NCBI RefSeq assembly: GCF_055900595.2
Contig: NZ_CM148325.1
Reading direction: 5' to 3' (one strand)
DNA length: 64,000 nucleotides
Shown: one piece after another, positions 5,249 through 27,560 of the stretch
How the letters are laid out: each line of letters begins with the position of its first letter
Numbering within the stretch: the stretch's first letter is position 1
Translations under genes and position numbers: made by a program
Notes under the pieces: model-generated
The model's database searches: none
Seen by the model: only the letters and a program-made list of their open reading frames with translations
Told to the model about the DNA's origin: nothing

Positions 5249-6420
5249 CGTTCGCGCAACGCCTCCTGTGCTTTGTTAAAGGGTTTCAACAGATAATCCA
5301 GCACGCTTTTTTTGCCAGTGCGGATATCGACCGTCGCCACCATACCGGGAAATATCGGAAACTGCTGTTTGCTTTTATTTTCCAGATGGTTGCTGAAAGT
5401 GCGAATGTACACCCGATAGTAATAAACATCGCGCCGCACTTCATCCTGTACAGTGTCCGGTGAAATCACCGCCACTTCCCCTGGCAGGCCGCCGTAGATG
5501 GAGTAATCGTAAGCGGTTATTTTCACCAGCGATTTTTGCCCCGGATGGATAAACGCCACATCGCGGGGGGAGATTTTTGCCTCGATCAACAGTTGCTCAT
5601 CCAGCGGCACGATAGTCATGAGTTTACCACCGGGGGCGATGACGCCGCCAACCGTGGTGACGTCAATGTCCTGAACAATGCCTCGCACCGGCGCAGTAAA
5701 GTTGAGCCGGGTGAGAGAATCTTCCCGCCCGCGGATCACCGAACGCTGGGTTTCCACTTCCGCATTGGCTTTCGCTAACTCTTCGCGCGCTTGTACGTAG
5801 TATTGCGTACGCACGTCGCTAAGTTTGTTTTCCAGTTCATTGGCCTGGCGTTGCAGGCGCAGCACTTCAACGCTGCTCGCCGCCCCCTGTTTCACCAGCG
5901 GCTGGGTCATCGCCAGTTCGCGGTTGACCAGGCTAATCCCCTGCGTCAGCCCGGTGGTGGCTTTGTTCAACCCGTCGCGGCGAGTGTTATATAACGCCGT
6001 TTCCGACTCGATAAGTTCGGGGAATTTATTCAGTTCGTCAGGGAAGACCAGCGGTTTATTGCTCACTTCTGCCCGCAGCCGCGCCGAGGTTGCCAGCGCC
6101 GCATACAGCCGCGACATCGCTTCCTGGACGTCGGATTCCGTTTTGGTGCGGTTAAGCTGCGCCAGCGGCTGCCCCTGTTCGACAATATCGCCAACCTTCA
6201 CGTCGAGATGATACAAAATCCCGCCTTCCAGCGACTGCACCACCTGTTCGCGTCCAGAAGGTTCTACCGTGCCGCTGCCGGTGGTGACTTCATCAAGCTG
6301 GAAGTACCACGCCCAGCCGAGAAAACAGAGCAGCATCACAGCGGTAACGCGTACCGCCAGCGCCGAACGCGGCAAGCGGGGTTCAGTCAGGCCACGGTTG
6401 TATTGCAGTTGTCCGTTCAT
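5245..6420 (-). CDS. type I secretion membrane fusion protein (HlyD/LapC family periplasmic adaptor)
   Basis: 391 aa; N-terminal TM anchor, coiled-coil and beta-barrel/lipoyl motifs typical of HlyD family; overlaps ABC gene start and cueR start. Confidence 0.9.
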
Positions 6421-8582: not shown

Positions 8583-11500
8583 CTACACCACCATCAACTG
8601 ATGATTCGCCAGTAAAGTGGCGAGGTCGGTGTGCACGCCCGTCAGCGTGACCATGTTAGTTGTCGCAAAGCCGCCGCCCGTGCCGTCACGGTCGATCTGC
8701 ACGATGGTGTCGCTGCCGCTCTGGGTAACTTTGACAAAATCACCGATGTTTCCGGCCTGGGCATCCAGCGTTGCCACACCGTTGACATAGCTGGCTTTGC
8801 CGTTTCCGGTGTAGCCGCTGCCCTGTAACAGTTCACGAATATCAATGCGATCGGTGTCGGCGGTGCCTTCCCAGGTGCCTACCGTAAAGCCATTCACCAC
8901 GTCCGAACCGTTGCCCCCGGCGGCGTCACTGGCGTTAAGCAGTTTATATAGCAAGGTGTCGTGACCGCCGTTACCGATGTTGAGCGTGTCGTTGCCGCCG
9001 CGCCCTTCCAGTTGGTTATCGCCGCTGCTGCCGGTCAGAGTGTCATTAAAATTCGAGCCGGAAATCCCTTCGATATTGGTAAATGTCGAGGTATTAAAAC
9101 CGGTGGCCTGTGCGGTGGTAACGCTTAAGTTAGCGGTGACGCCCACCGTTGAGAGACGGAAATCGACCACGTCCATGCCGCCGTTCGCCAGCCAGGTTCC
9201 TGTGCCGGAGCTGTACACCCAGCCGCCGGAACCGTCGTAGGTGTCGGTGCCTGCGGTGGCGAAGAAGGTGTCGTTATAGCCAGTGCCGACAAACTTGCCG
9301 TTGTTGCTCGCCGTACCCGCTTCAGCACTGAGATCGTAAGCGTGAGTAGCATCGGTGGCCTGTAAGCCACCCCAGCTGGTATTCACCGTCTGGTCGATAT
9401 TGCTGGCGGTGGTGCCAGTGGATTTGATCAGCACCGCGTTGTAGGTTTCTCCAGCGTTAAGTCCGTAGAAGTTGACCAGCGCCGAGGTGTCGTTAACGCC
9501 CATCCCCGACTGCGGGTTGATGATTTGTGTCGCCACCAGCACGCCCGCCGAGTTGTACAGCTTCACGGTATTGCCGTAATAGACATTAATACCGTTGGGA
9601 TCGGTGATACGCAGGTGCAACGAGGTGCCGTAGCTCACCGTGTTAGTGTTACGGATGAGGAACACGCTGCCCGACTGTTTGGTTACCAGCACATCCACCG
9701 CGCCGTCCCAGTCGTAGTCCATTGCCGCCACGCCGCTGGTGGTGCCGCTCTGGCTGCCACCGAGTGCCGATTGTGTCCAGTTACTGGCGTTGCTGACGTT
9801 AGTATAAAGATACGACTGTCCGGTCTGGGCGATACGGGCGATGTCCATTAACCCGTCATGATCCCAGTCGACGGCCAGGCTGAATTGACTGGCGTAGGTG
9901 GTTGCCGTCGCGCCGACCGCCACCGGGCTACCCAGCACGCCGTTGGTGTTGAATAACAGCGAGCCGTAGTTAGCTCTTCCCTGGCTGGCGGGCAGGAAGA
10001 GGTCCATATCGCCGTCACCATCGAAATCGGCCCATGTCATGGAAACGGATGTCGAGTTTCCCCCCGAGCCAGGACTACTGAGGAAAGTATTGACGGTGTT
10101 TTGTCCCCAGACGAAGGTGCCATTGCCCTGGCTTATCAACGATGAGAGGGTGAAGTTGTTGTTCAGGTTGAAAGTGTGCTGAACCAGATCAATTCTGCCG
10201 TCATTATTAAGATCGACACCGGAACCTTCGTTGAGTGACAAATAACCTGTCACCGCCCCACCGACCGTAGCACTCCCCCCGTTATTAGCGGTGGTGGAGT
10301 TGCCTGTCAGGGTGCCGGCGTTGTTCCACAGGAAAGTGTTGGAGTCCGGCCCCCCGGCGTCGCCAATCCAGAAATCAAGATAACCGTCGCCCTCTTTATC
10401 GAACGCCACAATCGAGCCATACCACGTCAGGGTGCCAACGTTCACCTGGATGGCGCTGGAAAACGTACCGTCGCCGTTATTAGTAAAGCCGTTGATATAC
10501 CCCGTGCCGTAGTCATCACGGGTAATAAACAGATCGCCCGTACCGTTACGGTTGTAATCGGCGATGGAGCTGGTGGCATAGTTGTTGCCACTTTGCACCA
10601 GCGTCAGGGCGGTTTTCGACCAGGTGAGCGGATCGGTGGATTGCATAATTTGCTGGTTGGCCAGCACCGTCCACATCCCGTGGTTGTCGAGTCCATAAGT
10701 CAGCCCCCAGGCGGTGGATTTGCTGGTGGTGGTCCAGGTCGGTGTGTAATCTATCGCCGCGTTAACCGTTACCGTGCCAGTGCTGACGTTGGCGGTGTTG
10801 CCATTGCCCGCCGAGCTTTTCACCTGCGCGGTGACGTTATAGGCGGTCGCAGACGCCGCCAGCGCGTCGGTATCCGGCAGTTGTACATACCAGGTGTTGT
10901 GCGCCGGATCGACGACCACCGCACCGCCTGGCTGCGAAGTGTAAGTTTTGCCGTTGATCACCACTTCAACATACTGTCCGCTGGCGAGTGCCGCGGTGAG
11001 TACGCCGCTGATAATCGGCGTGGTATCGCGTGTGGTTTGATTGGTGATTTGCGCAAGCGTGGTCGGAATAGAGGTATCGACCGTCAGGACAAAATCACTG
11101 GAGGAGGTGATATTCCCGGCCAGATCCACCACTCGCGCACTGTAGGTGTACGCGCCGCTGACCAGACCACTGTCGCTGTAAGTCCAGTTCAGCGCGCCGA
11201 CCATCGTTACCGCACCTAACAGCAGACCGTTACGGTAGAGGTAAACGACTTCACCGCTGGCAAGCGGCGCAGAGAGCACGCCGTTGAGCAACGGCGTGGT
11301 GTCGTCGGTGGCCTGCGAATTGCTAAACGTCCCCTGCCGCTGCCCGACATCATCGGTATACGACACAATGGTCGGCGTGGCGGTGGGGTTAATCGTATCG
11401 ACCACCACCGTTTTCGATACCACCGGGCCTGTATTTCCCGCCAGATCCAGCACCCGTACCTGATAAACGTAGCTGCCGTCGGTCAGCGTGCGGCTGTCAG

Positions 11501-14500
11501 TGTAAGTCCACTGCGTACCGTTGGTGGTGAGCGTGGTCCAGGTCGCGCCGCCATCGAGGCTAATCTGCGCCACTTCGCCGCTGGCAAGCCCCGCCCCCAG
11601 CGAACCGGTCAGCGTGAGCGTGGTATCGCTGGTGATAAAGTCGGTGGCCGAACTCCCCGTATCGGTGCTGATGCTGGCGATGGTGAGCACCTGCGCCGGG
11701 TTAACGGTGTCAATCTGCGCCGACTGGCTGCCGGTTGCGCCAACGTTGCCCGCTAAATCAACCACCCGCACCTGCCAGGTGGTGGTGCCGTTGGTCAGCG
11801 TACGCCCGTCCACATATGTCCAGTTCAGACCGTCTGCGGCAACGGTCACGTTCACCCAGGTTGCGCCGTTGTCGGTACTGATTTGCGCGAACTCATTAGC
11901 GCCGAGCGCCGCGCCCAGCACGCCGCGCACGGTAAGCGTGGTGTCGCTGGTAATAAAATCGCTGCTGCTGGCTCCGGTGTCATCGCTGATACCGGTAATA
12001 GTGATGCTTTTCGCCGCTTCCGGGCTGATGGTGTCAACCACCACGTTTTGCGTCGCGGTCTGCCCGACATTCCCCGCCAGATCCACCACCCGCACCGTGT
12101 AATTCCATGTGCCGTCGGTGAGCGTGCGACCATCGGCATAGCTCCAGCTGGTGCCGATAACGGTTAAGGTGGCCCAGGTAACGCCACCATCAAGGCTGAT
12201 TTGCGCCCGTTCATCTGCCGCCAGCGCCGCGCCGAGCGTCCCGCGCACGGTCAACGTAGTGTCACGGGTCACAAAATCGCTGCTGCTTAACCCGGTGTCA
12301 TCGCTGATGCCCGCAATGACGATGGTTTTGCTCGCCAGCGGCGCGGTGGTATCCACGGTGACTATCTGGCTGGCGGTCGCGCCGATATTTCCGGCGGTGT
12401 CGATCACCCGTACCTGATAGTTGTAGTTACCGTCGGTCAGCGTGCGCCCGTCAAGATAAGTCCAGGTTAATCCATTTACCGCCAGATTCTGCCAGGTGGT
12501 GCCGCCATCGATACTGATTTGCGCGAACTCACCGGCAGAAAGTGCCGAGCCCAGCGTGCCGCTTACCGCAAGCGTCGTGTCGCTGGTGACAAAATCATTA
12601 GTAATCAGACCTGTATCGGTGGTGATCGCGCTAATGGCGATGGTTTTCACCGCGGGATCTGGCGCAGTAGTGTCGATCACCACATTCTGGCTATCAGTCG
12701 CCCCGACGTTGCCCGCCGCATCAATCACCCGCACCTGATAGAGATAGTTACCATCGGTCAGCGTGCGGCTGTCGTTATAGCGCCAGGTCGTGCCAGTAAC
12801 GGTAAGCGTGCTCCAGGTTACACCGCCGTCGATACTGATTTGCGCCGTCTCGTTACTGGCAAGCGCGGCGGTGAGTGAGCCGTTGACCACCACCGGGCTG
12901 ACGCTGGTGATAAAGTCGCTGGCGCTAAGGCCAGTGTCGGCTTGCAGGGAATCAATATTAATGCCCATCGCCGGGGCGCTGAGATCGACGGTAATGGTGT
13001 GATTGCTGCTACCGATGTTGCCAATGGCGTTGCTCACCGAAGCGTTAATCACATAGGCATTGCCGTCCGCCAGCGCGGTGACATCGGCGCTGCCGAGGGT
13101 GTAGCTCCAGCTACCACCGGTCTGCACCGTAGTGGTGTAGGTTTTACCGTTTAAGGTCAGAGTCAGCGTCTGCCCGACTGGGGCGGTGGTGGTGCCGCTG
13201 ATCACCAAAGACGCGCCGTGTTCCGCCGCGTTCACCACATCATCGCCCGCAAGGGTGTTAATGGTGACGGTGGGGACGTCGCCATTCAACGTCACGCCAC
13301 GGCTGGCGCTACCGGGGTTTCCGGCCTGATCGCTGACCGTCGCGCTGATGGTGTAGCTGCCGTCGCTTAATCCGGCAAACTGCTGCGCCGGAATAAACAC
13401 CGACCAGCTTCCGCCACTGCCGACCGTTGCGGTCCAGTTTTGTCCGTTAAAGGTGACGCTCACCGTCTGGCCCGCTTCGGCGGTGGTGGTGCCGCTGATG
13501 GTCTGCCCGGCAAGCTGCTCGGCGTTGTTGATAATATCGTCACCCGCCACCGTGGCGATGGTGACCGTTGGCGCAACGGTATCGACGGTCAGGGCGTGCG
13601 TGGTTTGACCGGGGTTACCGGCACGATCGTTCACGCTGGCGGTAATGGTCTGCGCACCCTGCCCGAGCGATGCCAGATCCGCCGCAGGCACGTTCAGCGC
13701 CCAAGTGCCATTGGCGGCAACCGTGGCGGTATAGGTTTTGCCGCCAAAGGTGACGGTGACCGTTTGCCCCACTTCCGCGCTGGTCGAGCCGTTAAGGGTT
13801 AACGGCTGCTGCTGTTCGGCGGCGTTGAGTCGATCGTCCGTCGAAACGGTGTTAATGCTGATAATCGGCGCGGTGAGATCCACCGCCACGCTGCGCGAGG
13901 CCGTGGCGCTGTTTCCGGCGCTGTCCTGCGCGGAGGCGCTAACCGTATAGCTGGTGCCATCCGCAAGCGCCGCAACGTCTGCCGCCGGCACGTTCACGCT
14001 CCAGCTCCCGTTGCTCTGAATGGTGGCGCTGTAGCCTTTGCCGTTAAGTAACACGGTCACCACCGTACCTGCGGCAAAGTTCGTTCCGGTGCCGCTCAGG
14101 GTCAGCGCACTGCCTGCTTCGGCGGCGTTAATCACGTCATCGCTGGCAACGGTGTTGATGCTGATTGCCACCGCCGTTAAATCGACGGTGAACGGATGGC
14201 TGACGCTGACCGGGTTTCCGGCGCTGCTCTGGCCTGTCACGTCAACGGTTAACGCCCCCGCAGGCCAGGCGCTGACGTTTGCCGCCGGAATGCCAACGCT
14301 CCAGCTTCCATCCGCCTGTACCGTGGTGGAATACGCCACACTGTTGATGGTAACCGTCAGCACAGCACCTGCATTCAGGCCGCTACTGCCGCCGGTGATC
14401 ACCAGCGCCTGACCATGCTCGATGCTGTTGACGATATCATCGCCCGCCACGGTATCCACCCGCAGCCCTGGCAGATTGGCATCAATGGTGATATCCCGCG

Positions 14501-17500
14501 TGCCGCTACCCGTATTGCCATTCGCGTTGGTAACCGAGGCGGTAATGGTCAAATCACCATTGCCCAACGCCTGGAGATCGGCTGCCGGAACGCTGACGCT
14601 CCAGCTTAAGTTGCCCTGTACCGTAGCGGTGTAAGTGTTACCGCCCAGCGTCACGGTAACTGTATCGCCAGCGGCGGCGCGGGTCACCCCCCCGCTGATG
14701 GTTTGATCGGCCCCGGCTTCGGCGGCGTTGATAATATCGTCGTCCGCCACGGTATTGATGGTGACGCCTGGCAGGCCGCTGTCGACCAGTAAATTCGCCT
14801 GGCTGCTGGCGGTGTTGCCTGCCGCACTGGTGGCGCTGGCGCTGACGGTATAGTTAGCCTGACCTAAGGCCGCCAGATCGCTCACCGGCACGGTTAAGGT
14901 CCAGTTGCCTGCTGCGTCGGTGGTAGCGCTGTAGTTATGACCGTTGAGCGTGACGGTAACCTGTGCGCCGGTCGCCAGCCCCGTACTGCTACCGCTGATG
15001 GTCAACGGCTGGCCTTTTTCATCGGCGTTCAGAACGTTATCGCTGCTGATGGCGTTAAAGGTAATGGTCGGCAGCCCGGTATTGACCGTCACCTGATGGC
15101 TGGCGTTGCCGCTGTTTCCGGCGGCGTCAGTGACGCTGGCGTTAATGGTCACCGTGCCGTTTGCCAGTGCCGAAACAACGCTTGCCGGGACGCCGACGCT
15201 CCAGTTGCCGCTGGCATCCAGCACCGTGGTGAAGGTATTTGTGCCGATAGTCACCGTCACGGTGTTACCGGTTGCCGCACCAGTGGCAGAGCCGCTGATA
15301 ATCTGCGCCTGGGCGTGTTCCGTCGCGTTGATCACATCATCACCCGCGACAGTGTTGATGGTGACGACCGGAACGGAAGTATCCACCGTCAGGTTGTGGT
15401 TAACCGAGGTCGGGTTTCCGGCCTTGTCGCTCACCGCCGCGCTGACGGTGTAGTTGCTGGCGGTCAGAGCGCTTAAGTCGGCTGGCGGTACGCTGATACT
15501 CCAGCTGCCGTCCGTTTGTACCGTGCCAGTATAGTTTGCGCCATTGAGCGTGACGGTCACCGTCTGCCCGGCTTCCGCCGTGCTGCTGCCGGTGATGGTC
15601 AGCGCCGCACCCGCTTCGGCGGCGTTAAGAATATCGTCGCCCGCAATGGTGTTAATGGTCACCGTTGGCGCGGTGGCATCGACGCTGTAAGCGTGGGTAG
15701 TGGTGGCACTGTTGCCGTTAACGTTGCTGACGCTGGCCTGCGCGCTGGCATCACCATCACGCAGGGCTGCCATATCCGCCGCCGGAACCGTGGTGCTCCA
15801 GGAACCATTCGCCGCGACACTTGCAGTATAGGTTTTACCGCCAAAGGTCACGGTGACCGTTTGCCCGGCCTCCACGCCAGAGGTGCTGCCGGAGAGCGTT
15901 AATGCCGCGCCTTTTTCAGCGGCGTTAATCACATCATCGGTGGTAATGGCGTTGATGCTGACCGCCACCGCCGAGAGATCGACAGTCACTGGATGCGTAA
16001 CGCTGACCGAGTTTCCGGCGGTAGTGCTGCCGCTCGCCGTAATCGTCACCGCCCCCGCAGGCCAGGCGCTGACATCCACCGCCGGAACGCCGACGCTCCA
16101 GGTGCCATCCGCCAGCACTGCCGCAACATAGGTTTGCCCGTTAATGGTCAGCGTGACATTGCTACCCACCGCCAGCCCAGAGCTGCTGCCGGTAATCACC
16201 AGCGCCTGACCGTGCTCGATAATGTTGACCACATCATCGCCCGCCACGGTATCGACCCGCAGACCGGGGAGATTCGCGTCTATGGTGATTTCGCGCGTGC
16301 CGTTACCGGTATTGCCTACGCTGTTCGTTACCGAAGCCGAAATGCTCAGCTCTCCGTTGCCCAACGCCTGTAACGCCGAAGCCGGAACATCGACACTCCA
16401 GCTTAAGTCTGCCTGTACCGTAGCGGTGTAAGTCGCCCCACCGAGCGTCACGGTCACCGTGTCGCCCGCCGCGGCCCTCGTGACCTGCCCGCTGATAGTT
16501 TGAGTTGCCCCCGCTTCGGCGGCGTTAATAATATCGTCCGTTGCCACAACGTTAATGGTGACGCCCGGTAGCGCGGTATTAACCTGCACGTTATGGCTGG
16601 CGGAACCGCTATTGCCATCAACATCGGTTGCGGCGGCAGTCACCGTATAAGTCGCTTCACCGAGCGTACCAACCGCAGACGCCGGAACAGTCACGCTCCA
16701 GTTCCCGGAAGCATCGGCAGTGGTGGTGTAATTTTGCCCGTTGAGCGTAACAGTTACCTGCGTGCCCGCAGGCTGGTTGCTGGTGCCGGAAATCGACAGA
16801 TCCGCGCCTTTCTCCGTGGCGTTGATGATGTCATCGACGGCGATGGTGTTAATGGCGAGTATCGGTGCACCGAGCGCCACGCTGACAGTGTGCGAGGCCG
16901 TGCCGCTGTTGCCTGCGGAGTCGGTAACCGTGGCGGTAATGGTCACATCGCCCTGGGCCAGCGCGGAAATCACGCTGGCAGGCACGCCGATGCTCCAGTT
17001 GCCGTTGGCGTCCAGCACGGTGGTGTAGGTGGTCGTGCCAATCGTCACGGAAACCGTGTTACCCGTCGTCGCGCCCGTTGCCGAGCCGCTGATAATCTGC
17101 GCCTGAGCATGTTCCGTGGCGTTAATGATGTCATCGCCTGCTACCGTGTTAATGGTGACGACCGGAGCGGCAAGATCCACCGTCAGGTTATGCGTCGCCG
17201 AGGTTGGGTTGCCCGCTTTGTCGCTGACCGCCGCGCTCACCGTATAGGGGCTGGCGGTAAGGTCGGCTAAATCGCCAGTTGGTACGCTGACGCTCCAGCT
17301 CCCGTCTGCCTGCACGTTGCCGCTGTAATTGATGCCGTTTAGCGTCACGGTCACTGTCTGCCCGGCTTCTGCGGTGCTGGTGCCGCTGATGGTCAGCGCC
17401 GATCCCGCTTCGGCGGCATTAAGAATATCGTCGCTGGCGATGGTGTTGATAGTAACGGAGGGCGCGGTGGCATCGACGCTATAAACATGCGTTGCCTGGG

Positions 17501-20500
17501 CGTTGTTACCCGCGACGTTGCTGACGCTGGCCTGGATGTTTGCTGCGCCATCCGGCAAGGTTGCGAGATCGGCTGCTGGGATCGTCAGCCCCCAGGTATT
17601 ATCCGCGGCAACCGTGGTGGTGTAGCTTTTGCCACCGAAAATAACGGTAATGGTCTGCCCCGCTTCCACGCCGGAGGTGGTGCCAGAAAGCTGCAAATCA
17701 GTGCCTTTTTCGGCGGCGTTTATCACATCGTCAGTGGAGAGTGTATTGATGGTAATCGCCACGGCAGCGAGATTGACCGTGACCGGATGGCTAATGCTGG
17801 TTGTGGTTCCGGCGGTATTAGTGCCAGAGACGGCAATATTGACCGTCCCCGTAGGCCAGTTAGCCACGTCCGCTGCCGGAACGCCGACGCTCCAGGTGCC
17901 ATCGGCGAGTACCGTTGCGCCGTAGGTGACGCTATTGATAACCACCGTCAACGCCGCGCCCGCCGCCAGTCCGGTACTACTGCCGGTGACCACCAGTGCC
18001 TGAGTGTACTCAATGCTGTTAATCACATCATCGCCTGCCACGGTATCAACCCGCAGACCTGGCAAGTTGGCATCTATCACGATGTCGTGCGTTGCGGTGC
18101 CGGTATTATTTGCGGAATTGGTCACCGAGGCGCTGATGGTCAGTTCACTGTTACCCAGCGCCTGCAAATCTGCCGCAGGCACGCTGACGCTCCAGCTTAA
18201 ATCTGGCTGCACGGTGGCAATGTATTGATTACCGCCGAGCGTGACAGTGACCGAATCTCCTGCTGCTGCCGTCCCCGTAACCTGTCCGCTGAGGGTCTGG
18301 TTAACGGCGATTTCAGCGGCGTTGATAATGTCATCGCCCGCCACGGTATTAATAATCACCCCAGGCAGGAGCGATTCGACATTCACCGTATGGGTGGTGC
18401 TGCCGTTGTTGCCCGCGCTGTCGGTGGCACTGGCGCTAATCTGGTATACCGCCTCGCCCAGTGCGCCGACCGCCGAAGCAGGCACGGTAACGCTCCAGTT
18501 GCCGGAGCCGTCGGTGGTGGCGCTGTACGCCAGGCCGTTCAACATCACGGTGACCGTAGTGCCTGCCGCCAGGCCGCTGGAGACGCCGCTGATGATCAGA
18601 TCCTGGGTTTTCTCGGTATTGTTAATGATGTCATCGCCGGAGACGGTGTTGATGGTCAGCGTCGGGCCGCTGAGATCAACGGTCACATCGTGAGTCGTGC
18701 TGTCGCTGTTGCCCGCGCGATCGCTCAGGCTGGCGGTGATGGTCTGGCTACCGGTTGCCAGTGCCGTGACATCCGCCGCCGGAATACCCACACTCCAGTT
18801 ACCGGAGGCGTCCAGCGTTGTGGTGTAGTTTTTACCGTTCAGATTAACCGTGACCACATCGCCCGCCGCCGCGCCCGTACTGGTGCCGCTCACCACCAGC
18901 GCCTGACCATGTTCGATGGCGTTGATAATGTCATCGCCCGCGACGGTATTAATGGTGAGATCCGGCGCGGTAACGTCCACCGCCAGTGCATGATCCGCGC
19001 TTGCCGGGTTGCCCGCTTTGTCGCTCACCGTGGCGGTCACGGTATAACTGCTGGCGGTTAATCCGCTTAAATCTGTCGCCGGAACGTTCACACTCCAGGT
19101 GCCATCGGCCTGGACGGTAGTCTGGTACGTGTTGTTATTGAGCGTGACAGTCAGCGTCTGCCCGGCCTGCGCCGTGGTGGTGCCGCTGATAGTTATCCCC
19201 GCGCCCGCTTCACTCACGTTGAGAATATCGTCGCTGGCGATGGTGTTGATGGTCACAAGCGGCGCGGTGGCATCGACGCTGTACGCGCGATCGGCCTGGG
19301 CGCTGTTGCCGTTAATGTTGCTGACACTCGCCTGCACGTTGCCCGCGCCGTCCGGCAACGCAGCGAGATCGGCAGGCGGCACATTCACCGTCCAGCTACC
19401 GTTGGCTTCCACAGTGGTGGTGTAATTTTTGCCGCCAAAGGTGACGGTCACCGTCTGCCCGGCTTCTACACCGCTGGTACTGCCGCTCACCACCAGCGTT
19501 TCGCCTTTTTCGACGGCATTGATCACATCATCGCCGGAGAGAGTGTTAATGGTTATGGCGACCGCCGCCAGATCGACGGTAACCGGATGGGTAATGGTGG
19601 AGGTTGTTCCGGCGCTGTTGGTGCCGCTTACCGTGATATCCACCGTACCCGCAGGCCAGTTGCTGACGTCTGCCGCCGGAACGCCGAGGTTCCATGTACC
19701 GTCAGCTAACACCGTGGCAGCGTAAGTGACGTTGTTAATCACGACCGTTAATGCCGTTCCTGCCGTCAGCCCGGTGCTGCTACCTGTTATCACCAGCGCC
19801 TGATTGTGCTCAATGCTGTTAATAACATCATCGCCCGCTACGGTATCGACCCGCAAACCAGGCAGATTGGCATCGATCGTAATATCGCGCGAGCCGCTGC
19901 CGCTGTTGCCCACGACGTTGGTGACCGAGGCGTTAACTGTCAGGTCGCCGTTACCAAGCGCCTGAATATCCGCCGCCGGAACGCTGACACTCCAGCTTAA
20001 ATTAGCCTGCACCGTAGCGGTGTAGGTGTTGCCGCCCAGCGTGACGGTGACCGTATCGCCCGCCGCCGCGCCCGTCACCTGCCCGCTGATGGTTTGCACA
20101 CTGCCCGCTTCGGCGGCATTAATAATGTCATCGGTTGCCACTGCGTTAATGGTAACGCCAGGTAAGGCGCTGTTGACCAGCACATTATGGCTGACGGAAT
20201 TACTGTTGCCTGCCGTGTCGGTAACGCTCGCCGTTACCGTGTAGTTGGCTTCACCCAACGCGCTAGCTGCCGAGGCTGGCACCGTGGCGCTCCAGTTGCC
20301 ACTGCTATCGGTGGTAGCGGTGTAATTTTGTCCGTTCAGCGTCACTGTAATGGTGGTGCCTGCGGGCTGATTACTGGTGCCAGTAATTTGCAGATCCGCG
20401 CCTTTTTCTGTGGCGTTAATCACATCATCGGTGGCGATAGTATTGATACCTATCGTTGGCGAGGTGAGATTCACGGTGACCGTGCGGCTGGCATCATCGC

Positions 20501-23500
20501 TGTTGCCTGCCGCATCGGTAATGGCCGCAGTGATGGTTTGCGGGCCGCTGCCCAGCGCAGTGACGTCTGCTGCCGGAACGCCGACGCTCCAGTTGCCGGA
20601 GGCGTCCAGCGTGGTGGTATAAGTTTTACTGTTTAACGTGATGGTGATGACATCGCCCGCTTCGCCGCCAGTGCTGGAACCGGAGATCACCAGCGCCTGT
20701 CCGTGTTCGGCGGCGTTAATGATGTCATCGCCGGAGACGGTGTTAATGGTTAAAACTGGCACGGTGAGATCCACCGCCAGGCCGTGAGTGGCGGTCGCCG
20801 GGTTACCCGCTTTGTCGCTTACCGAGGCGCTGACCGTGTACGGGCTGGCGGTCAGATTGCTGAGATCCGCCGTCGGCACGCTGACGCTCCAGCTACCGCC
20901 CGCCTGAACGGTGCCGATGTAAGCCACACCATTAAGCGTGACGGTTACCGTTTGCCCCGCTTCGGCGGTGCTGGTGCCGCTGATGGTTAACGGATTGCCC
21001 GCCTCAGCGGCGTTAAGAATATCGTCTGTGGCAATAGTGTTAATGGCAAGCGTCGGTGCCGTGGCGTCGACGCTGTAGGCGTGGGTTGCCGAAGCCGTGT
21101 TGCCGTTAATATTGCTGACACTGGCCTGTACCGTGGCGTCGCCGTCACGTAACGCGCTGAGATCGGCGGTGGGTAGAGTAGTTGTCCAGCTACCATCGCC
21201 CGCTACGGTAGCAATATAGGTTTTGCCGCCAAAGGTGACGGTGACGGTTTGCCCCGCTTCCACGCCGGAAGTGCTGCCGGAAAGGGTTAACTCTGCCCCT
21301 TTTTCAGCGGCATTAATCACATCGTCGCCGGAAACGGTGTTAATGGAGATCGCCACCGCCGCCAGATCGACGGTGACCGGATGGGTGATGGTGGAGGTTG
21401 TTCCGGCAGTGTTAGTGCCGCTTACCGTGATATCCACCGTCCCCGCAGGCCAGTTGCCCACGTCTGCCGCCGGAACGCCAACGCTCCATGTGCCATCGGC
21501 TAATACTGTCGCAGCGTAAGTGACCGTGTTAATCACCACTGTCAGCGCCGCGCCCGCCGCCAGCCCGCTGCTGCTACCGGTTATCACCAGTGCCTGAGCG
21601 TGCTCGATGCTGTTGACCACATCATCGCCCGCCACGGTATCGACGCGCAGACCCGGCAGGTTGGCGTCTATCACAATATCGCGCGAACCGCTGCCAGTAT
21701 TACCCACGCCGTTGGTTACCGAGGCATTAACTGTCAGTTCGCCATTACCGATAGCCTGAATATCCGCCGCCGGAACGTCCACGCTCCAGCTAAAATTGCC
21801 CTGCACGGTAGCGGTGTAGGTTTTCCCGCCAATCGCCACGGTAACCGTATCGCCCGCCGCCGCACCCGTCACCTGGCCGCTGATGGTCTGCGCCACGCCC
21901 GATTCCGCCGCGTTAATAATATCGTCGGTCGCCACCGGATTAATGGTGACACCCGGCAGCGCGGTATTCACCTGCACGTTATGGCTGGCGGAATTGCTGT
22001 TGCCCGCGCTGTCGGTGACGTTCGCCGTCACCGTGTAACTGGCGTCGCCCAGCGCACCGACGGCAGAGGCTGGCACCGTGGTGCTCCAGTTGCCTGCGGC
22101 GTCCGTCGTGGCGGAGTAATTTTGCCCGTTAAGCGTCACCGTAATTGTGGTGCCTGTTGGCTGATTACTGGTGCCGGAAATTTGCAGATCCGCGCCTTTT
22201 TCCGTGGCATTAATCACGTCATCGCTGGCAATGGGGTTGATGCCAATGGTCGGCGCGGTAAGGTTAACGGTGACCGTGTGCGTCTCGTTGTCGCTGTTGC
22301 CAGCCACATCGGTAACGGTCGCCGTCACGGTTTGCGGGCCGCTGCCCAGCGCAGAGACATCCGCAGCCGGAACGCCGACGCTCCAGTTTCCGGAGGCGTC
22401 CAGCGTGGTAGTGTAGGTTTTATTGTTTAGCGTGACGCTGACGATATCGCCCGCCTCCCCGCCAGTGCTGGAACCGGAAATCACCAGCGCCTGCCCGTGT
22501 TCGGCGGCGTTAATAATATCATCGCCCGCAATGGTGTTAATGGTCAGTACCGGAACGGTGAGATCCACCGCCAGATTATGCGTGGTGCTCGCCGGGTTGC
22601 CCGCTTTGTCATTGACCGTCGCCGTCAGGGTATGGCTGCCATCGGTCAATGCCTCAAGATCTGCCGCCGGAATAGTAATACTCCAGCTGCCGTCCGCCTG
22701 CACTGTTGCCTGATAGGTCTGCACGGTCGGGCTGTTAAGCGTTACCGTAACAATCTGCCCCGCTTCAGCGGTGGTGCTGCCGCTCACCGTCACGCCCGCA
22801 TCGGCTTCGCTGGCGTTGACGATATTGTCGCTGGCGACGGTATTGATAATGATGGTTGGCGCGCTGCTATCGACGCTGTAGTTATGCACCGCCGAGGCGC
22901 TATTGCCATTGATATTGCTGACGCTGGCCTGCGCGGAGGCGCTGCCCTCAGGTAATGCTGCCAGATCGGCGGCAGGAACGGTGGCAGTCCAGCTACCATC
23001 GCTCGCCACGCTGGCGGTGTAATTTTTCCCGCCAAAGTTGACGGTGACGGTTTGTCCTGGCTCTACATTAGTGGTGGTGCCGGAAAGAGTTAAATCAGCG
23101 CCTTTTTCTGCGGCGTTAATCACGTCGTCCGTGGCGATGGTGTTGATTGTGATCGCCGCCGGAGTGAGATCCACCGTTACCGGATGCGTAATGCTCACCG
23201 GATTTCCGGCGCTACTTTCCCCGGATACAGCAATAGACACTGTTCCCGCAGGCCAGGCGCTAACCTGCGCCGCCGTGACGCCCACGCTCCAGCTACCATC
23301 GACCTGCACCGCAGTGGTGTATTCCACATTATTAATCGTAACTGTAAGCGGGGTGCCTTCTGCCAGCCCCGAGCTGCTGCCGGTGACCACCAGCGCCTGC
23401 CCGTGTTCGATGATATTGACCACATCATCGCCCGCTACCGTATCGACCCGCAGACCGGGCAGATTGGCGTCGATGGTGATATCCCGCGTGCCGCTGCCGG

Positions 23501-26500
23501 TGTTGCCGTTTTGATTGGTGACCGAGGCGCTCACCGTTAAATCACCATTACCCAGCGCCTGAATATCCGCCGCCGGAACGCTCACGCTCCAGCTTAAACC
23601 GGCCTGCACGGTGGTGCTGTAAGTATTACCGCCCAGCGTAACGGTTACCGTGTCGCCAACGGCGGCTCCAGTCACCTGCCCGCTGATGGTTTGCGCAGCC
23701 CCCGCTTCGGCGGCGTTAATAATATCGTCGGTTGCCACCGGGTTAATAGTCACGCCGGGCAGCGCGCTGTCGACCAGCACGTTATGGCTGGCGGTGGCGC
23801 TGTTGCCGATATCGCTGGTCACCGCCGCCGTTACCGTATAGTTGGCCTGGCCCAGTGCGGTTACCGCCGATGCCGGAACGGTGACGCTCCAGTTACCGGA
23901 GGCGTCGGTCGTGGTGGTGTAATTTTGCCCGTTCAGCGTCACTGTGATGGCGGTATTAACAGGCTGATCGCTGGTGCCGGTAATTTGAACATCGGCCCCT
24001 TTTTCGCTGGCGTTAATCACATCATCGCCCGCAATGGTGTTAATGCCAATCACCGGCGCGGCGGTATCAACCGTGACGGTCAGTGACTGGCTACCCGTAT
24101 TTCCGGCGCGATCAGTCACTGAAACGTTGATCGGATAACTGCCGTCCACCAGTCCGCTGACAACGGAGGCCGGAACGCCCAGACTCCAGTTGCCGGAAGC
24201 ATCCACCACCGTGGTGTAATCCACATCATTCAGCGTAACGGTGACAATATCGCCCGCCTGCGCGCCGGTGACCGTGCCGCTGATGATTTGCGCCTGGGTA
24301 TGTTCCGGCGTGTTAATGACGTTATCGGTTGCCACCGGATTAATGGTCACCACCGGCGGCGTGGCATCGACCAGCGCCACCCGTGAGACGCTGGTCGGAT
24401 TACCCGCGACATCGTTCACGCTCGCGGTCACCGTGGCGTTGCCGTCAGCCAGTGCGCCAACGTTGGCGGCGGGAACGGTCACGCTCCAGGAGCCAACTGA
24501 CTGCACGACGCCCTGATAGGTCTGCCCATTAAGCGTGACGGTCACCGTCTGCCCCGGCTGAGCGTCGGTGGTGCCAGTGATTTGCAGATCCTGACCACTT
24601 TCGGCGGCGTTAATGATGTTATCAGCCGTCAGCGAGTCGATGCTTAAAGCCGGAGCCAGGCTGTCGACGGTAATGGTGCGGGAGGTGTCGCCTGTGTTAC
24701 CGCTGATATTAGTAACGGTCGCAGTGATTTCCGTCGCACCGTCTGCCTGGCTACTCACCGCGCTGGCGGGAACGGTCAGGCTCCAGCCGCCACCTGCCTG
24801 AACGGTAGTGGTAAAGGTCTGCCCGGCGAATTTCACTACTACGGTTTGCCCGGTTTCCACCAGCTGCGTGGTACCGGTCAGCGTCAATGGCGCGCCTTTT
24901 TCTGCGGCATTGATAATGTCATCGCCGGAGACGGTATTGATGGTAATAAGCACCGCGCCCGGATTAACCTCCACGTTGCGATCGATAGTAACCGGGTTCC
25001 CGGCGGGGTCCGTTGCGCTGGCATTAACCACTATCGTACCCGGCGTCAGTGCCTGTAGATCTGCCGCAGGCACGCCTACCTGCCAGTTGCCGTTGCTGTC
25101 GGTCACCCCCTGGTAGGTGTTGCCGCCGAGCAAAACAGTGACCACTCTTCCGGCGGACAAATTAGTACTGCTACCGGTGATAATCAGGTTTTGCTGCTGC
25201 TCAACGGCATTGATCACATCATCGCCCGCGATGGTGTCAATGCGCAGCCCCGGCAGCCCGGCGCTGATGGTGATATCAAGCGCACTGCTACCCGTATTGC
25301 CATGTACGGTAGTAACCGAAGCATTAATGGTTAACGCACCATCGCCCAGCGCCTGTAAATCTGCCGCCGGAACGTTCACGCTCCAGGTGAGATTGCTGCC
25401 CACCGTCGCCGTGTAAGTATTGCCGCCCAGTTCAATAGTGACCGTATCGCCCTGCGCGGCGCCCACGACGACGCCACTCAGGGTTTGATCTGCTCCCGCT
25501 TCGGCGTTGTTGACAATGTTGTCGCCCGCAAAGGTGTTGATGATCACCTGCGGCAGCACCGTATCGACCAGCAAATTGCTCTGCGCGGTGCCAGTGTTGC
25601 CGGTCACATCGGTGGCGCTGGCAGTGACGGTGTAATTGGTGTTCGCAAGATTAACAACATCACTCACCGGAACGCTCAGCGACCAGACGCCGCCGCTGAC
25701 CTGAGCGCTATACGTGACATTATTCAACGTCACGCTAACTGTACCGCCATCGGGCAAATTGCTGGTGCCGCTTAACGTTAGCGGCTGCTGAGACTCCAAC
25801 GCATTCAGTACGTTATCTCCGCTGATAGCATCTATCGCGACTTGCGGCGCGACGCCCGCCAGGGTGATGTTATGAGTCGCTGTACCGGTATTTCCGGCGG
25901 CATCGGTCACCGTGACGATAATATCGTTAGGGCCACGCGCTAGAGTGCGAGTTACCGCCGGATCAAGCGCCACATTCCAGCTACCGTCTGCCTGCACCAC
26001 GCCGGACAGAACTGTGGCGCCTAACTTGACGGTGACCGTGTCGCCAGGGGAAGCCCCACTGACCCGCCCGGAAATAATCTGCGCCACAATCTGTTCGGCG
26101 GTATTAAGAATATCGTCACCCGCAACGGTGTTAACGCTGACCACTGGCGCACCGGTGTCTACTGTGAAATTTACGCTGTTGCTGGTGGTGTTTCCTGCCC
26201 GGTCGCTGACGCTGGCATTTATGGCGTAGTCGCCATCTGCCAGCGCCTGCACTTCTGCGGCAGGCAGCGTCACTTGCCAGGTTCCGTCACTACCGACAGT
26301 TGCTGTGTGGCTTTTCCCGTTAACGGTCAGTGTTACGGTTTGCCCGGCTTCTGCGTTCGAAGTGCCGCTCACTACCAGCGAGGCATTATGTTCTGAGGCG
26401 CTGACAATGTTGTCCTGAGCGATGGTGTTGATTGCAAGTGTTGGCGGCTGGGTATCGACCGTTAGCAGCTGCGCTCCGGTGACCGTATTGCCCGTGGCAT

Positions 26501-27560
26501 CTTTCCCACTGACCAGCACCGCCTGATTGCCTTCGCCTAATGTCTGGGCGTCGGCGGTCGGCACCTGCACGCTCCACGCGCCGTTAGCGCCTACGCTGGT
26601 GGTGTAAGTTTTGCCGTTTAGCGTGACGGTGAGTTCCGTTCCCTGTGCCAGATGGCTACTGGTGCCAGAAAGGGTAAACCCGGCGGCCTGTTCGCTGGCG
26701 TTAATGATGTTATCGCCTGCGGTGGTGGCGAGCTGTACGGCGGCCTGACTATTGTCGATGGTTAACGTTATCGACCCGGCGTTGGTAATGGTGCTGCCGA
26801 CGATTTGCACCACTGACCAGGTATGTTCGCCCGCGCTTTGTGTGGGCAAATCGACGCTCCAGCGTCCATCGCTACCGACCTGGGTACTGGCGATGGTGTC
26901 ACCATTGCTGTCTTTAATCTGGATGGTCGCCCCCGCCTGTCCGCTGCCGCTAAAGGTTGGCGTAGTGTCATCGGTGATATCGTTGGCGGAAAGAATACCG
27001 CGTTGATCGCCCTGATTATCGGTTACCAAAAACGATGGAGTGGCATTGCCGGGTTCGGCTGGCGGAGGGTTGTTAACCACTTCAGTTTTTGAGTCATCAT
27101 CACCACCGCTTGCCAGTAAAGCGCCAAGCGCGCCACCACCTACCGCGGCACCCGCTAACCATCCCCACGGGAAGGCACTGGTCTGAGCGACGGTATCAAG
27201 ATACGGCGCAATGCTTTCAATTGCGGTAGTCTGAGCGGTCAGCTCCACGGGCGCTAATCCACCCGCCGCGGTATCGGCAAAGGTGACATGAGTCAGCTGT
27301 TGCCCATCGGCAAACACCAGTTCGGATTGCTCGCTGGTATTTGCCGCTTGCAGGAAATAACCATTACAGCGGATCACCGTGCCGTCCTGCATATAAATCA
27401 GCAGATCGTTTCCATCGCGCACATAACGCGCAACGGCAGAGGCCTGAGCATGAACCTGCACCACGGAGGGCTCATAAATGACAACCGTAACGTCGCCAGG
27501 ATTAATCAGCGTTTGTTTGACGGATGTTTTTCGCGAAATAACATCAATAATCAGGCTCAT
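8583..27560 (-). CDS. giant T1SS-secreted adhesin (6,325 aa): LapA-like N-terminal module, ~45-50 Ig-like repeats, FG-GAP-like calcium-binding repeats, RTX-type GG repeats and C-terminal secretion signal
   Basis: single 18,978-nt ORF; ~100-aa repeats each with the ...INT(V/I)AGDD(I/V)INAAE... core; DFDGDGDMD / DWDHDGLMD / DYDWDGAVD motifs; GGNDTLNIGNGGHDTL near C-terminus; flanked by T1SS genes. Confidence 0.9.
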   Translation of the reverse strand: MSLIIDVISRKTSVKQTLINPGDVTVVIYEPSVVQVHAQASAVARYVRDGNDLLIYMQDGTVIRCNGYFLQAANTSEQSELVFADGQQLTHVTFADTAAGGLAPVELTAQTTAIESIAPYLDTVAQTSAFPWGWLAGAAVGGGALGALLASGGDDDSKTEVVNNPPPAEPGNATPSFLVTDNQGDQRGILSANDITDDTTPTFSGSGQAGATIQIKDSNGDTIASTQVGSDGRWSVDLPTQSAGEHTWSVVQIVGSTITNAGSITLTIDNSQAAVQLATTAGDNIINASEQAAGFTLSGTSSHLAQGTELTVTLNGKTYTTSVGANGAWSVQVPTADAQTLGEGNQAVLVSGKDATGNTVTGAQLLTVDTQPPTLAINTIAQDNIVSASEHNASLVVSGTSNAEAGQTVTLTVNGKSHTATVGSDGTWQVTLPAAEVQALADGDYAINASVSDRAGNTTSNSVNFTVDTGAPVVSVNTVAGDDILNTAEQIVAQIISGRVSGASPGDTVTVKLGATVLSGVVQADGSWNVALDPAVTRTLARGPNDIIVTVTDAAGNTGTATHNITLAGVAPQVAIDAISGDNVLNALESQQPLTLSGTSNLPDGGTVSVTLNNVTYSAQVSGGVWSLSVPVSDVVNLANTNYTVTASATDVTGNTGTAQSNLLVDTVLPQVIINTFAGDNIVNNAEAGADQTLSGVVVGAAQGDTVTIELGGNTYTATVGSNLTWSVNVPAADLQALGDGALTINASVTTVHGNTGSSALDITISAGLPGLRIDTIAGDDVINAVEQQQNLIITGSSTNLSAGRVVTVLLGGNTYQGVTDSNGNWQVGVPAADLQALTPGTIVVNASATDPAGNPVTIDRNVEVNPGAVLITINTVSGDDIINAAEKGAPLTLTGTTQLVETGQTVVVKFAGQTFTTTVQAGGGWSLTVPASAVSSQADGATEITATVTNISGNTGDTSRTITVDSLAPALSIDSLTADNIINAAESGQDLQITGTTDAQPGQTVTVTLNGQTYQGVVQSVGSWSVTVPAANVGALADGNATVTASVNDVAGNPTSVSRVALVDATPPVVTINPVATDNVINTPEHTQAQIISGTVTGAQAGDIVTVTLNDVDYTTVVDASGNWSLGVPASVVSGLVDGSYPINVSVTDRAGNTGSQSLTVTVDTAAPVIGINTIAGDDVINASEKGADVQITGTSDQPVNTAITVTLNGQNYTTTTDASGNWSVTVPASAVTALGQANYTVTAAVTSDIGNSATASHNVLVDSALPGVTINPVATDDIINAAEAGAAQTISGQVTGAAVGDTVTVTLGGNTYSTTVQAGLSWSVSVPAADIQALGNGDLTVSASVTNQNGNTGSGTRDITIDANLPGLRVDTVAGDDVVNIIEHGQALVVTGSSSGLAEGTPLTVTINNVEYTTAVQVDGSWSVGVTAAQVSAWPAGTVSIAVSGESSAGNPVSITHPVTVDLTPAAITINTIATDDVINAAEKGADLTLSGTTTNVEPGQTVTVNFGGKNYTASVASDGSWTATVPAADLAALPEGSASAQASVSNINGNSASAVHNYSVDSSAPTIIINTVASDNIVNASEADAGVTVSGSTTAEAGQIVTVTLNSPTVQTYQATVQADGSWSITIPAADLEALTDGSHTLTATVNDKAGNPASTTHNLAVDLTVPVLTINTIAGDDIINAAEHGQALVISGSSTGGEAGDIVSVTLNNKTYTTTLDASGNWSVGVPAADVSALGSGPQTVTATVTDVAGNSDNETHTVTVNLTAPTIGINPIASDDVINATEKGADLQISGTSNQPTGTTITVTLNGQNYSATTDAAGNWSTTVPASAVGALGDASYTVTANVTDSAGNSNSASHNVQVNTALPGVTINPVATDDIINAAESGVAQTISGQVTGAAAGDTVTVAIGGKTYTATVQGNFSWSVDVPAADIQAIGNGELTVNASVTNGVGNTGSGSRDIVIDANLPGLRVDTVAGDDVVNSIEHAQALVITGSSSGLAAGAALTVVINTVTYAATVLADGTWSVGVPAADVGNWPAGTVDITVSGTNTAGTTSTITHPVTVDLAAVAISINTVSGDDVINAAEKGAELTLSGSTSGVEAGQTVTVTFGGKTYIATVAGDGSWTTTLPTADLSALRDGDATVQASVSNINGNTASATHAYSVDATAPTLAINTIATDDILNAAEAGNPLTISGTSTAEAGQTVTVTLNGVAYIGTVQAGGSWSVSVPTADLSNLTASPYTVSASVSDKAGNPATATHGLAVDLTVPVLTINTVSGDDIINAAEHGQALVISGSSTGGEAGDVITITLNSKTYTTTLDASGNWSVGVPAADVTALGSGPQTITAAITDAAGNSDDASRTVTVNLTSPTIGINTIATDDVINATEKGADLQITGTSNQPAGTTITVTLNGQNYTATTDSSGNWSATVPASAASALGEANYTVTASVTDTAGNSNSVSHNVLVNSALPGVTINAVATDDIINAAEAGSVQTISGQVTGAAAGDTVTVTLGGNTYTATVQANLSWSVSVPAADIQALGNGDLTVNASVTNVVGNSGSGSRDITIDANLPGLRVDTVAGDDVINSIEHNQALVITGSSTGLTAGTALTVVINNVTYAATVLADGTWNLGVPAADVSNWPAGTVDITVSGTNSAGTTSTITHPVTVDLAAVAITINTLSGDDVINAVEKGETLVVSGSTSGVEAGQTVTVTFGGKNYTTTVEANGSWTVNVPPADLAALPDGAGNVQASVSNINGNSAQADRAYSVDATAPLVTINTIASDDILNVSEAGAGITISGTTTAQAGQTLTVTLNNNTYQTTVQADGTWSVNVPATDLSGLTASSYTVTATVSDKAGNPASADHALAVDVTAPDLTINTVAGDDIINAIEHGQALVVSGTSTGAAAGDVVTVNLNGKNYTTTLDASGNWSVGIPAADVTALATGSQTITASLSDRAGNSDSTTHDVTVDLSGPTLTINTVSGDDIINNTEKTQDLIISGVSSGLAAGTTVTVMLNGLAYSATTDGSGNWSVTVPASAVGALGEAVYQISASATDSAGNNGSTTHTVNVESLLPGVIINTVAGDDIINAAEIAVNQTLSGQVTGTAAAGDSVTVTLGGNQYIATVQPDLSWSVSVPAADLQALGNSELTISASVTNSANNTGTATHDIVIDANLPGLRVDTVAGDDVINSIEYTQALVVTGSSTGLAAGAALTVVINSVTYGATVLADGTWSVGVPAADVANWPTGTVNIAVSGTNTAGTTTSISHPVTVNLAAVAITINTLSTDDVINAAEKGTDLQLSGTTSGVEAGQTITVIFGGKSYTTTVAADNTWGLTIPAADLATLPDGAANIQASVSNVAGNNAQATHVYSVDATAPSVTINTIASDDILNAAEAGSALTISGTSTAEAGQTVTVTLNGINYSGNVQADGSWSVSVPTGDLADLTASPYTVSAAVSDKAGNPTSATHNLTVDLAAPVVTINTVAGDDIINATEHAQAQIISGSATGATTGNTVSVTIGTTTYTTVLDANGNWSIGVPASVISALAQGDVTITATVTDSAGNSGTASHTVSVALGAPILAINTIAVDDIINATEKGADLSISGTSNQPAGTQVTVTLNGQNYTTTADASGNWSVTVPASAVGTLGEATYTVTAAATDVDGNSGSASHNVQVNTALPGVTINVVATDDIINAAEAGATQTISGQVTRAAAGDTVTVTLGGATYTATVQADLSWSVDVPASALQALGNGELSISASVTNSVGNTGNGTREITIDANLPGLRVDTVAGDDVVNIIEHGQALVITGSSSGLAVGSNVTLTINGQTYVAAVLADGTWSVGVPAVDVSAWPAGAVTITASGSTTAGNSVSVTHPVTVDLSAVAVSINAITTDDVINAAEKGAALTLSGSTSGVEAGQTVTVTFGGKTYTASVAANGSWSTTVPAADMAALRDGDASAQASVSNVNGNSATTTHAYSVDATAPTVTINTIAGDDILNAAEAGAALTITGSSTAEAGQTVTVTLNGANYTGTVQTDGSWSISVPPADLSALTASNYTVSAAVSDKAGNPTSVNHNLTVDTSVPVVTINTVAGDDVINATEHAQAQIISGSATGAATGNTVTVTIGTNTFTTVLDASGNWSVGVPASVVSALANGTVTINASVTDAAGNSGNASHQVTVNTGLPTITFNAISSDNVLNADEKGQPLTISGSSTGLATGAQVTVTLNGHNYSATTDAAGNWTLTVPVSDLAALGQANYTVSASATSAAGNTASSQANLLVDSGLPGVTINTVADDDIINAAEAGADQTISGGVTRAAAGDTVTVTLGGNTYTATVQGNLSWSVSVPAADLQALGNGDLTITASVTNANGNTGSGTRDITIDANLPGLRVDTVAGDDIVNSIEHGQALVITGGSSGLNAGAVLTVTINSVAYSTTVQADGSWSVGIPAANVSAWPAGALTVDVTGQSSAGNPVSVSHPFTVDLTAVAISINTVASDDVINAAEAGSALTLSGTGTNFAAGTVVTVLLNGKGYSATIQSNGSWSVNVPAADVAALADGTSYTVSASAQDSAGNSATASRSVAVDLTAPIISINTVSTDDRLNAAEQQQPLTLNGSTSAEVGQTVTVTFGGKTYTATVAANGTWALNVPAADLASLGQGAQTITASVNDRAGNPGQTTHALTVDTVAPTVTIATVAGDDIINNAEQLAGQTISGTTTAEAGQTVSVTFNGQNWTATVGSGGSWSVFIPAQQFAGLSDGSYTISATVSDQAGNPGSASRGVTLNGDVPTVTINTLAGDDVVNAAEHGASLVISGTTTAPVGQTLTLTLNGKTYTTTVQTGGSWSYTLGSADVTALADGNAYVINASVSNAIGNIGSSNHTITVDLSAPAMGINIDSLQADTGLSASDFITSVSPVVVNGSLTAALASNETAQISIDGGVTWSTLTVTGTTWRYNDSRTLTDGNYLYQVRVIDAAGNVGATDSQNVVIDTTAPDPAVKTIAISAITTDTGLITNDFVTSDTTLAVSGTLGSALSAGEFAQISIDGGTTWQNLAVNGLTWTYLDGRTLTDGNYNYQVRVIDTAGNIGATASQIVTVDTTAPLASKTIVIAGISDDTGLSSSDFVTRDTTLTVRGTLGAALAADERAQISLDGGVTWATLTVIGTSWSYADGRTLTDGTWNYTVRVVDLAGNVGQTATQNVVVDTISPEAAKSITITGISDDTGASSSDFITSDTTLTVRGVLGAALGANEFAQISTDNGATWVNVTVAADGLNWTYVDGRTLTNGTTTWQVRVVDLAGNVGATGSQSAQIDTVNPAQVLTIASISTDTGSSATDFITSDTTLTLTGSLGAGLASGEVAQISLDGGATWTTLTTNGTQWTYTDSRTLTDGSYVYQVRVLDLAGNTGPVVSKTVVVDTINPTATPTIVSYTDDVGQRQGTFSNSQATDDTTPLLNGVLSAPLASGEVVYLYRNGLLLGAVTMVGALNWTYSDSGLVSGAYTYSARVVDLAGNITSSSDFVLTVDTSIPTTLAQITNQTTRDTTPIISGVLTAALASGQYVEVVINGKTYTSQPGGAVVVDPAHNTWYVQLPDTDALAASATAYNVTAQVKSSAGNGNTANVSTGTVTVNAAIDYTPTWTTTSKSTAWGLTYGLDNHGMWTVLANQQIMQSTDPLTWSKTALTLVQSGNNYATSSIADYNRNGTGDLFITRDDYGTGYINGFTNNGDGTFSSAIQVNVGTLTWYGSIVAFDKEGDGYLDFWIGDAGGPDSNTFLWNNAGTLTGNSTTANNGGSATVGGAVTGYLSLNEGSGVDLNNDGRIDLVQHTFNLNNNFTLSSLISQGNGTFVWGQNTVNTFLSSPGSGGNSTSVSMTWADFDGDGDMDLFLPASQGRANYGSLLFNTNGVLGSPVAVGATATTYASQFSLAVDWDHDGLMDIARIAQTGQSYLYTNVSNASNWTQSALGGSQSGTTSGVAAMDYDWDGAVDVLVTKQSGSVFLIRNTNTVSYGTSLHLRITDPNGINVYYGNTVKLYNSAGVLVATQIINPQSGMGVNDTSALVNFYGLNAGETYNAVLIKSTGTTASNIDQTVNTSWGGLQATDATHAYDLSAEAGTASNNGKFVGTGYNDTFFATAGTDTYDGSGGWVYSSGTGTWLANGGMDVVDFRLSTVGVTANLSVTTAQATGFNTSTFTNIEGISGSNFNDTLTGSSGDNQLEGRGGNDTLNIGNGGHDTLLYKLLNASDAAGGNGSDVVNGFTVGTWEGTADTDRIDIRELLQGSGYTGNGKASYVNGVATLDAQAGNIGDFVKVTQSGSDTIVQIDRDGTGGGFATTNMVTLTGVHTDLATLLANHQLMVV

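Follow-up and report, generated by a model that had tools for sequence, protein, structure and literature searches.

Sequence and model comparisons place the N terminus of the giant Escherichia coli adhesin SiiEA in the BapA family and not among LapA-type retention modules

The intact 6,325-aa open reading frame (ORF) on the minus strand at positions 8583 to 27560 of the window (the whole 64,000-nucleotide stretch that was analyzed) is, judged by its sequence, the giant E. coli adhesin SiiEA of an already described system, and its N-terminal module is, according to sequence comparison and structural modeling, a BapA-family prefix domain and not a retention module of the LapA/MpIBP type. On the same grounds, the TAAG within this module is assigned as a tetrapeptide that is specific to Escherichia and lies in a predicted loop, and not as a LapG cleavage site. 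The joint best explanation, i.e., SiiEA identity, a BapA-family N terminus, an incidental TAAG and a putative plug-like retention, appears quite probable to us. It removes LapG/c-di-GMP control of SiiEA, a tempting but wrong shortcut, and narrows the question to the BapA_N domain and the hydrophobic linker as a candidate tether in the TolC-like channel. Since EHEC O157:H7 and many further E. coli have the siiEA locus as a colonization factor, the way in which SiiEA is held and released matters for adherence and for strategies against it. The features discussed below are as follows.

8583..27560, minus strand: siiEA, giant BapA-related type I secreted adhesin, 6,325 aa (NF047714 on residues 1-200, E=1.2e-136, 453.5 bits against a cut-off of 425)
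27201..27560, minus strand: predicted BapA_N beta domain, residues 1-120 (PF22783 on residues 5-131, E=3.2e-18; AlphaFold)
27261..27272, minus strand: TAAG, residues 97-100, unsupported as a LapG site (loop position, chance frequency, poor conservation)
27102..27173, minus strand: hydrophobic Gly/Ala segment FPWGWLAGAAVGGGALGALLASGG, residues 130-153 (hydropathy, GxxxG count)
10758..26999, minus strand: 54 consecutive Ig-like (Big_13-type) repeats of ~100 aa each, residues 188-5601 (jackhmmer self-search, Pfam Big_13/Big_6)
9684..10559, minus strand: FG-GAP_3 (VCBS-like) repeats, residues 5668-5959 (Pfam PF13517, three matches, E=3e-8 to 3e-7)
8955..9293, minus strand: degenerate RTX-like Gly/Asp repeats, residues 6090-6202 (HemolysinCabind, E=2e-4 and 0.97)
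8586..8903, minus strand: C-terminal type I secretion target domain, residues 6220-6325 (TIGR03661 T1SS_VCA0849, 35.2 bits against a cut-off of 17.6)
6417..8579, minus strand: LssB/LapB-type ABC permease/ATPase (TIGR03375, 836.9 bits against a cut-off of 693)
5245..6420, minus strand: HlyD-family periplasmic adaptor (TIGR01843, 327.7 bits against a cut-off of 208.65)

With respect to the locus, the original prediction of a giant adhesin with a linked type I export system was confirmed. The ORF starts with ATG and is part of a four-gene operon for a TolC-like channel, the adhesin, an LssB-type ABC transporter and an HlyD-type adaptor, whose genes are tightly packed without any extra ORF within the operon according to the ORF list and the junction sequences; the adaptor start overlaps the ABC stop, and the adaptor stop overlaps the start of cueR. 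The operon is located on the chromosome between ybaT/glsA and cueR, which is the position of O-island 28, and the gene list in PMC12758282 agrees with this site. The SiiEA of the window corresponds, in intact form, to the "RTX" adhesin encoded by O-island 28 of EHEC O157:H7, whose locus (z0608 [tolC28], z0609/z0615 [rtxA28/rtxB28], z0634 [hlyB28] and z0635 [hlyD28]) has the same site, gene order and family. The O157:H7 allele shows five differences in the N-terminal 160 residues. In O157:H7 the gene carries an internal-stop flag (PGAP) and is described as encoding two proteins (PMC12758282), whereas the allele of the window is a single intact ORF. The O-island 28 locus was found in 2025 to be required for adherence, its adhesin acting in early epithelial adherence and gut colonization with RstA and calcium as activators (PMC12758282); a simple pattern search upstream of the TolC-like gene revealed no RstA box of the form TACA-N6-TACA. 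The siiEA annotation is present in RefSeq E. coli genomes, and among 5,426 complete E. coli genomes 958 have the same junction with siiEA annotated.

The N-terminal module had been predicted to be a beta-rich domain of ~90 aa, of which the beta-rich character stood and the length did not, as the AlphaFold model comprises 11 strands extending through residue 114 in a fold of ~120 aa with a pLDDT of >90 for residues 1 to 120. In addition to the matches listed above, NF033677 scored 72 bits on the N terminus (cut-off 35). The retention_LapA model NF033682, in contrast, had no match to the SiiEA N terminus (149.7 bits for a LapA-type control), and a profile of the N terminus found no match in the PDB, including 5IX9, which the control matched at E=1.9e-10. 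Alignment of this profile with the LapA-type alignment reached a probability of 15.8% in hhalign, and a fold search with the confident N-domain model did not find 5IX9, which ranked first for the LapA-type control model. With the BapA_N and SiiEA models matching instead, the assignment to the LapA type was not supported, nor was, as judged from predicted models, the postulated structural likeness to LapA-type retention domains. The BapA_N core of SiiEA has a relative in HCBP_related, a repeat found in RTX proteins; the prefix domain is named for Salmonella BapA, and NCBIfam itself terms SiiEA "BapA-related." The N-domain and the hydrophobic linker are conserved in 93 homologues, which were obtained by an exhaustive representative search (a word-indexed search using the first 200 residues found only 10 close fragments), and the dN/dS ratio of the N-terminal module against the O157:H7 allele is 0.033.

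The sequence FADTAAGG is indeed found at residues 94 to 101, with TAAG at nucleotides 27261 to 27272, and the tetrapeptide falls within residues 70 to 150, the search range of published dialanine screens. In the AlphaFold model it is situated in a loop between strands 89-94 and 105-107, i.e., inside the confident fold, whereas a position in the flexible tail would be expected from the LapA-type control model. The pattern [T/A/P]AA[G/V] occurs eight times in SiiEA, compared to 7.08 +/- 2.6 times in shuffled sequences, and shuffles gave a chance of 0.11 to 0.15 for at least one occurrence in residues 80 to 180. Any such motif in the linker was present in only 7 of the 93 homologues, and after setting aside a near-identical E. 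coli protein, none of the six motif-bearing homologues had it in the aligned column. In two orthologues from Enterobacter cloacae (61% and 56% identity), one of which shares the operon order, the sequences are DAAV and AGDAS, and the dialanine motif is absent in the homologues from Enterobacter, Pantoea and Franconibacter. The element L..A...G.DPT, which invariably precedes the site in LapA-type proteins, is absent from the SiiEA sequence. The proposed dialanine cleavage site is not supported, since TAAG is not conserved, occurs at chance level and lacks the upstream helix/DPT element for LapG binding. Every E. coli allele examined retains TAAG although dS is 0.52, the whole module being equally constrained, and the tetrapeptide could conceivably have a lineage-specific function in E. 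coli. Screening for the dialanine motif alone leads to false positives in giant proteins rich in Ala, Gly and Thr.

The statement that no protease or c-di-GMP receptor gene is linked to the adhesin was borne out by a six-frame search of the window, in which 817 segments yielded neither lapG nor lapD (best E values of 0.6 to 3 versus 4.9e-116 for the positive control). E. coli flanking regions (L001 and L002) were free of LapG (PF06035/NF045674) and LapD (PF16448/NF045673), and four BapA_N loci had no PF06035 or PF16448 within 10 kb, whereas a LapA-type control locus carries both. A distant-mode blastn search of low sensitivity with a Pseudomonas lapG query found no lapG-like DNA in the 5,426 complete E. 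coli genomes. When a LapG alignment was compared with a collection of 5.8 billion proteins, the best 120 of 8,000 scored matches were all from Pseudomonas. We know of no BTLCP or LapD-type protein in the inventories of E. coli K-12 or O157:H7, and the main texts of published lapDG surveys name Escherichia neither as a genus with lapDG nor as one without. The absence of lapG and lapD from the window is no puzzle, because the N terminus appears to be of the BapA family and TAAG is a non-conserved motif at chance level.

SiiEA is composed, in this order, of the BapA_N domain, the Gly/Ala linker, the 54 Ig-like repeats, FG-GAP repeats, degenerate RTX repeats and the C-terminal secretion domain. 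Autocorrelation revealed a super-period of six repeats (~598 aa) in the Ig-like array, and the FG-GAP_3 region is, from its sequence, likely to be the distal ligand-binding region. Of the predicted C-terminal features, the secretion signal was clearly recovered with TIGR03661, whereas the RTX-like repeats are weak: the better HemolysinCabind match is that at E=2e-4, the only canonical GGxGxD is located at residue 6215, and SiiEA does not match the strict pattern for RTX repeats that Smith et al. applied. Homologous loci (L003 to L007) encode adhesins with Ig-like, FG-GAP and T1SS domains together with OMP, ABC and MFP genes, organized as here.

The ABC partner had been predicted to be of the LapB type with a C39-like domain, and it does belong to the LssB/LapB subfamily together with genuine LapB, which scores 932.3 bits on TIGR03375 and shares 36% identity with it. 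The match of its N-domain to Peptidase_C39 is only weak (E=0.03), and the first Cys is found at residue 212, so the C39-like N-domain is Cys-less. Classical RTX toxins of the HlyA type have a GGxGxD array and an HlyB-type ABC transporter, whereas SiiEA has one such nonapeptide and the HlyB model scores 388 bits on its ABC partner, below the cut-off of 725. The gene adjoining siiEA encodes a TolC-family outer membrane protein (TIGR01844, 407 bits against a cut-off of 225) and is annotated as such in E. coli genomes. The LssB/LapB class of transporters has been tied to retained adhesins by Smith et al. (preprint 10.1101/198937).

The hydrophobic Gly/Ala stretch of the original prediction is present as FPWGWLAGAAVGGGALGALLASGG at residues 130 to 153, within a flexible linker (residues 121 to 179; pLDDT of <50 for the segment) ahead of the first Ig domain. 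It contains GxxxGxxxG at residues 133 to 141, and 75 of 94 homologues have GxxxG. For the best hydropathy window of 19 residues, the median is 1.73 in the BapA_N family versus 0.43 to 1.23 in LapA-type modules; the E. coli segment reaches 1.40. The Gly-rich GGGALGALLASGGDDD after the module is part of this hydrophobic segment, which LapA-type proteins lack.

In type I export, the substrate passes C terminus first through a conduit of ABC transporter, adaptor and TolC-like channel and folds outside the cell with calcium. The folded N-domain of 120 aa would accordingly reach the channel last and be unable to pass, the ~58-residue linker (121 to 179) would then sit in the TolC-like pore, and the adhesin would be tethered without LapG and LapD, with release, if any, by another route. 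The BapA_N domain, the hydrophobic Gly/Ala linker and the LssB/LapB-type transporter may thus form a LapG-independent retention device, and SiiEA may be released by a mechanism other than LapG. A role in retention is favored by the conservation of N-domain and linker among the 93 homologues, the low dN/dS ratio and the LapB-class transporter. A LapG-insensitive N terminus, that of PA1874, is able to retain LapA (preprint 10.1101/198937), the BapA_N class of PA1874 being unconfirmed; searching the BapA_N homologues by "AAAIG" or by length recovered no PA1874, and the look-alike representatives were from Franconibacter.

By analogy with LapA-type adhesins, SiiEA may work much like these as a plug. 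In the plan common to SiiEA and the LapA/MpIBP/FrhA type, a folded N-domain is followed by a flexible linker, Gly-rich but in SiiEA partly hydrophobic, by a long extender and by a C-terminal secretion domain, and export uses an LssB/LapB-type ABC transporter and a dedicated TolC-like channel. The N-domains, however, are unrelated (a 66-aa fold as in 5IX9 versus the HCBP-related 120 aa of SiiEA), and SiiEA has the hydrophobic segment and is without the helix/DPT element, the conserved dialanine and the linked LapG and LapD. A more far-reaching proposal is that the BapA_N domain, the glycine-zipper-like segment and a poly-Gly/Asp spacer constitute a second class of retention modules, which would have arisen independently of the LapA class from an RTX-associated beta unit of the HCBP type, use LssB/LapB-type transporters and be released, if at all, without LapG and LapD. 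We offer it tentatively and with considerable doubt; if true, such a class would account for the cell attachment of enterobacterial giant adhesins, e.g., SiiEA and BapA.

The BapA proteins of Salmonella enterica (bapABCD) and Pseudomonas aeruginosa (BapA/PA1874) are likewise giant adhesins with Ig repeats, FG-GAP/VCBS repeats, a C-terminal signal and dedicated OMP, ABC and MFP components. SiiEA is about twice as long as BapA-family adhesins, and its TolC-like gene precedes the adhesin gene and does not follow it as in the BapA-family loci L004 and L006. Salmonella SiiE (SPI-4 siiABCDEF), which has a similar name, likewise belongs to the giant T1SS adhesins with Ig repeats in enteric bacteria and is transiently retained via its N-terminal part (PMC6272769). 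The SiiE operon, however, has the MotAB-like accessory genes siiA and siiB, for which the ORF list of the four-gene SiiEA operon contains no additional candidate, and the N terminus of SiiE consists of beta-sheet, coiled coil and beta-sheet, whereas that of SiiEA is modeled as all-beta BapA_N without a long helix.

The alternative that survives best is classical one-step secretion, in which SiiEA would be fully released and rebind to cells or host, with BapA_N serving self-association, matrix binding or as a late folding cap. Two published observations count against retention and for this alternative: one-step secretion is the simple model drawn for the O-island 28 adhesin (PMC12758282), and P. 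aeruginosa BapA is a supernatant protein only loosely bound to cells (PMC3510237). The O157:H7 gene with its internal-stop flag points in the same direction, as both of its ORFs were reported to be needed (PMC12758282), and, if there are two, a C-terminal piece lacking the N-module might remain functional. One-step secretion would nevertheless leave unexplained why the N-domain is so strongly conserved, why the linker is of sufficient length to reach through a TolC-like channel and why there is a dedicated TolC-like gene with an LssB/LapB-class transporter, and an adhesin that bridges bacterium and host would require some anchorage. We consider it unlikely, yet deserving of serious attention.

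Retention could also be due to residues 130 to 153 inserting into a membrane as a glycine-zipper helix instead of the linker being held in the channel. The family median hydropathy above the usual threshold of 1.6, the frequent GxxxG, the GxxxGxxxG of SiiEA and the lack of the segment in LapA-type modules agree with such an anchor, but the value of the E. coli segment is lower, AlphaFold predicts no helix at these residues, an alpha-helical anchor would be unusual for the outer membrane and the insertion machinery of the inner membrane is bypassed in type I export (textbook knowledge). P. aeruginosa BapA, whose N-terminal class is unconfirmed, was moreover not found in the membrane fraction (PMC3510237), and we regard a membrane anchor as improbable.

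A LapA-type module whose TAAG is cut by a LapG-like protease encoded elsewhere under control of LapD and c-di-GMP is very hard to believe, since the literal TAAG with Gly-rich sequence downstream, its retention across the E. coli alleles, the transporter class, the VCA0849 subclass of the C-terminal domain and the precedent of unlinked lapGD in V. cholerae (reported in PMC6890996) are opposed by the missing likeness to LapA-type modules in sequence, profile and fold despite working positive controls, by the nature and position of the motif and by the negative searches for LapG and LapD in the window and next to four homologous loci and, at blastn sensitivity, for lapG-like DNA in the 5,426 E. 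coli genomes.

Outside the operon, a neighboring gene product of 407 aa (3617 to 4840) was considered as a candidate for a new type of release factor; neither Pfam nor NCBIfam has a match to it, a signal peptide is lacking, and this role is unsupported. With respect to variation, the number of repeats in siiEA differs between strains, with >6,900 aa in another strain, and the siiEA allele of the window represents a minority lineage found in eight genomes at 99.9% identity.

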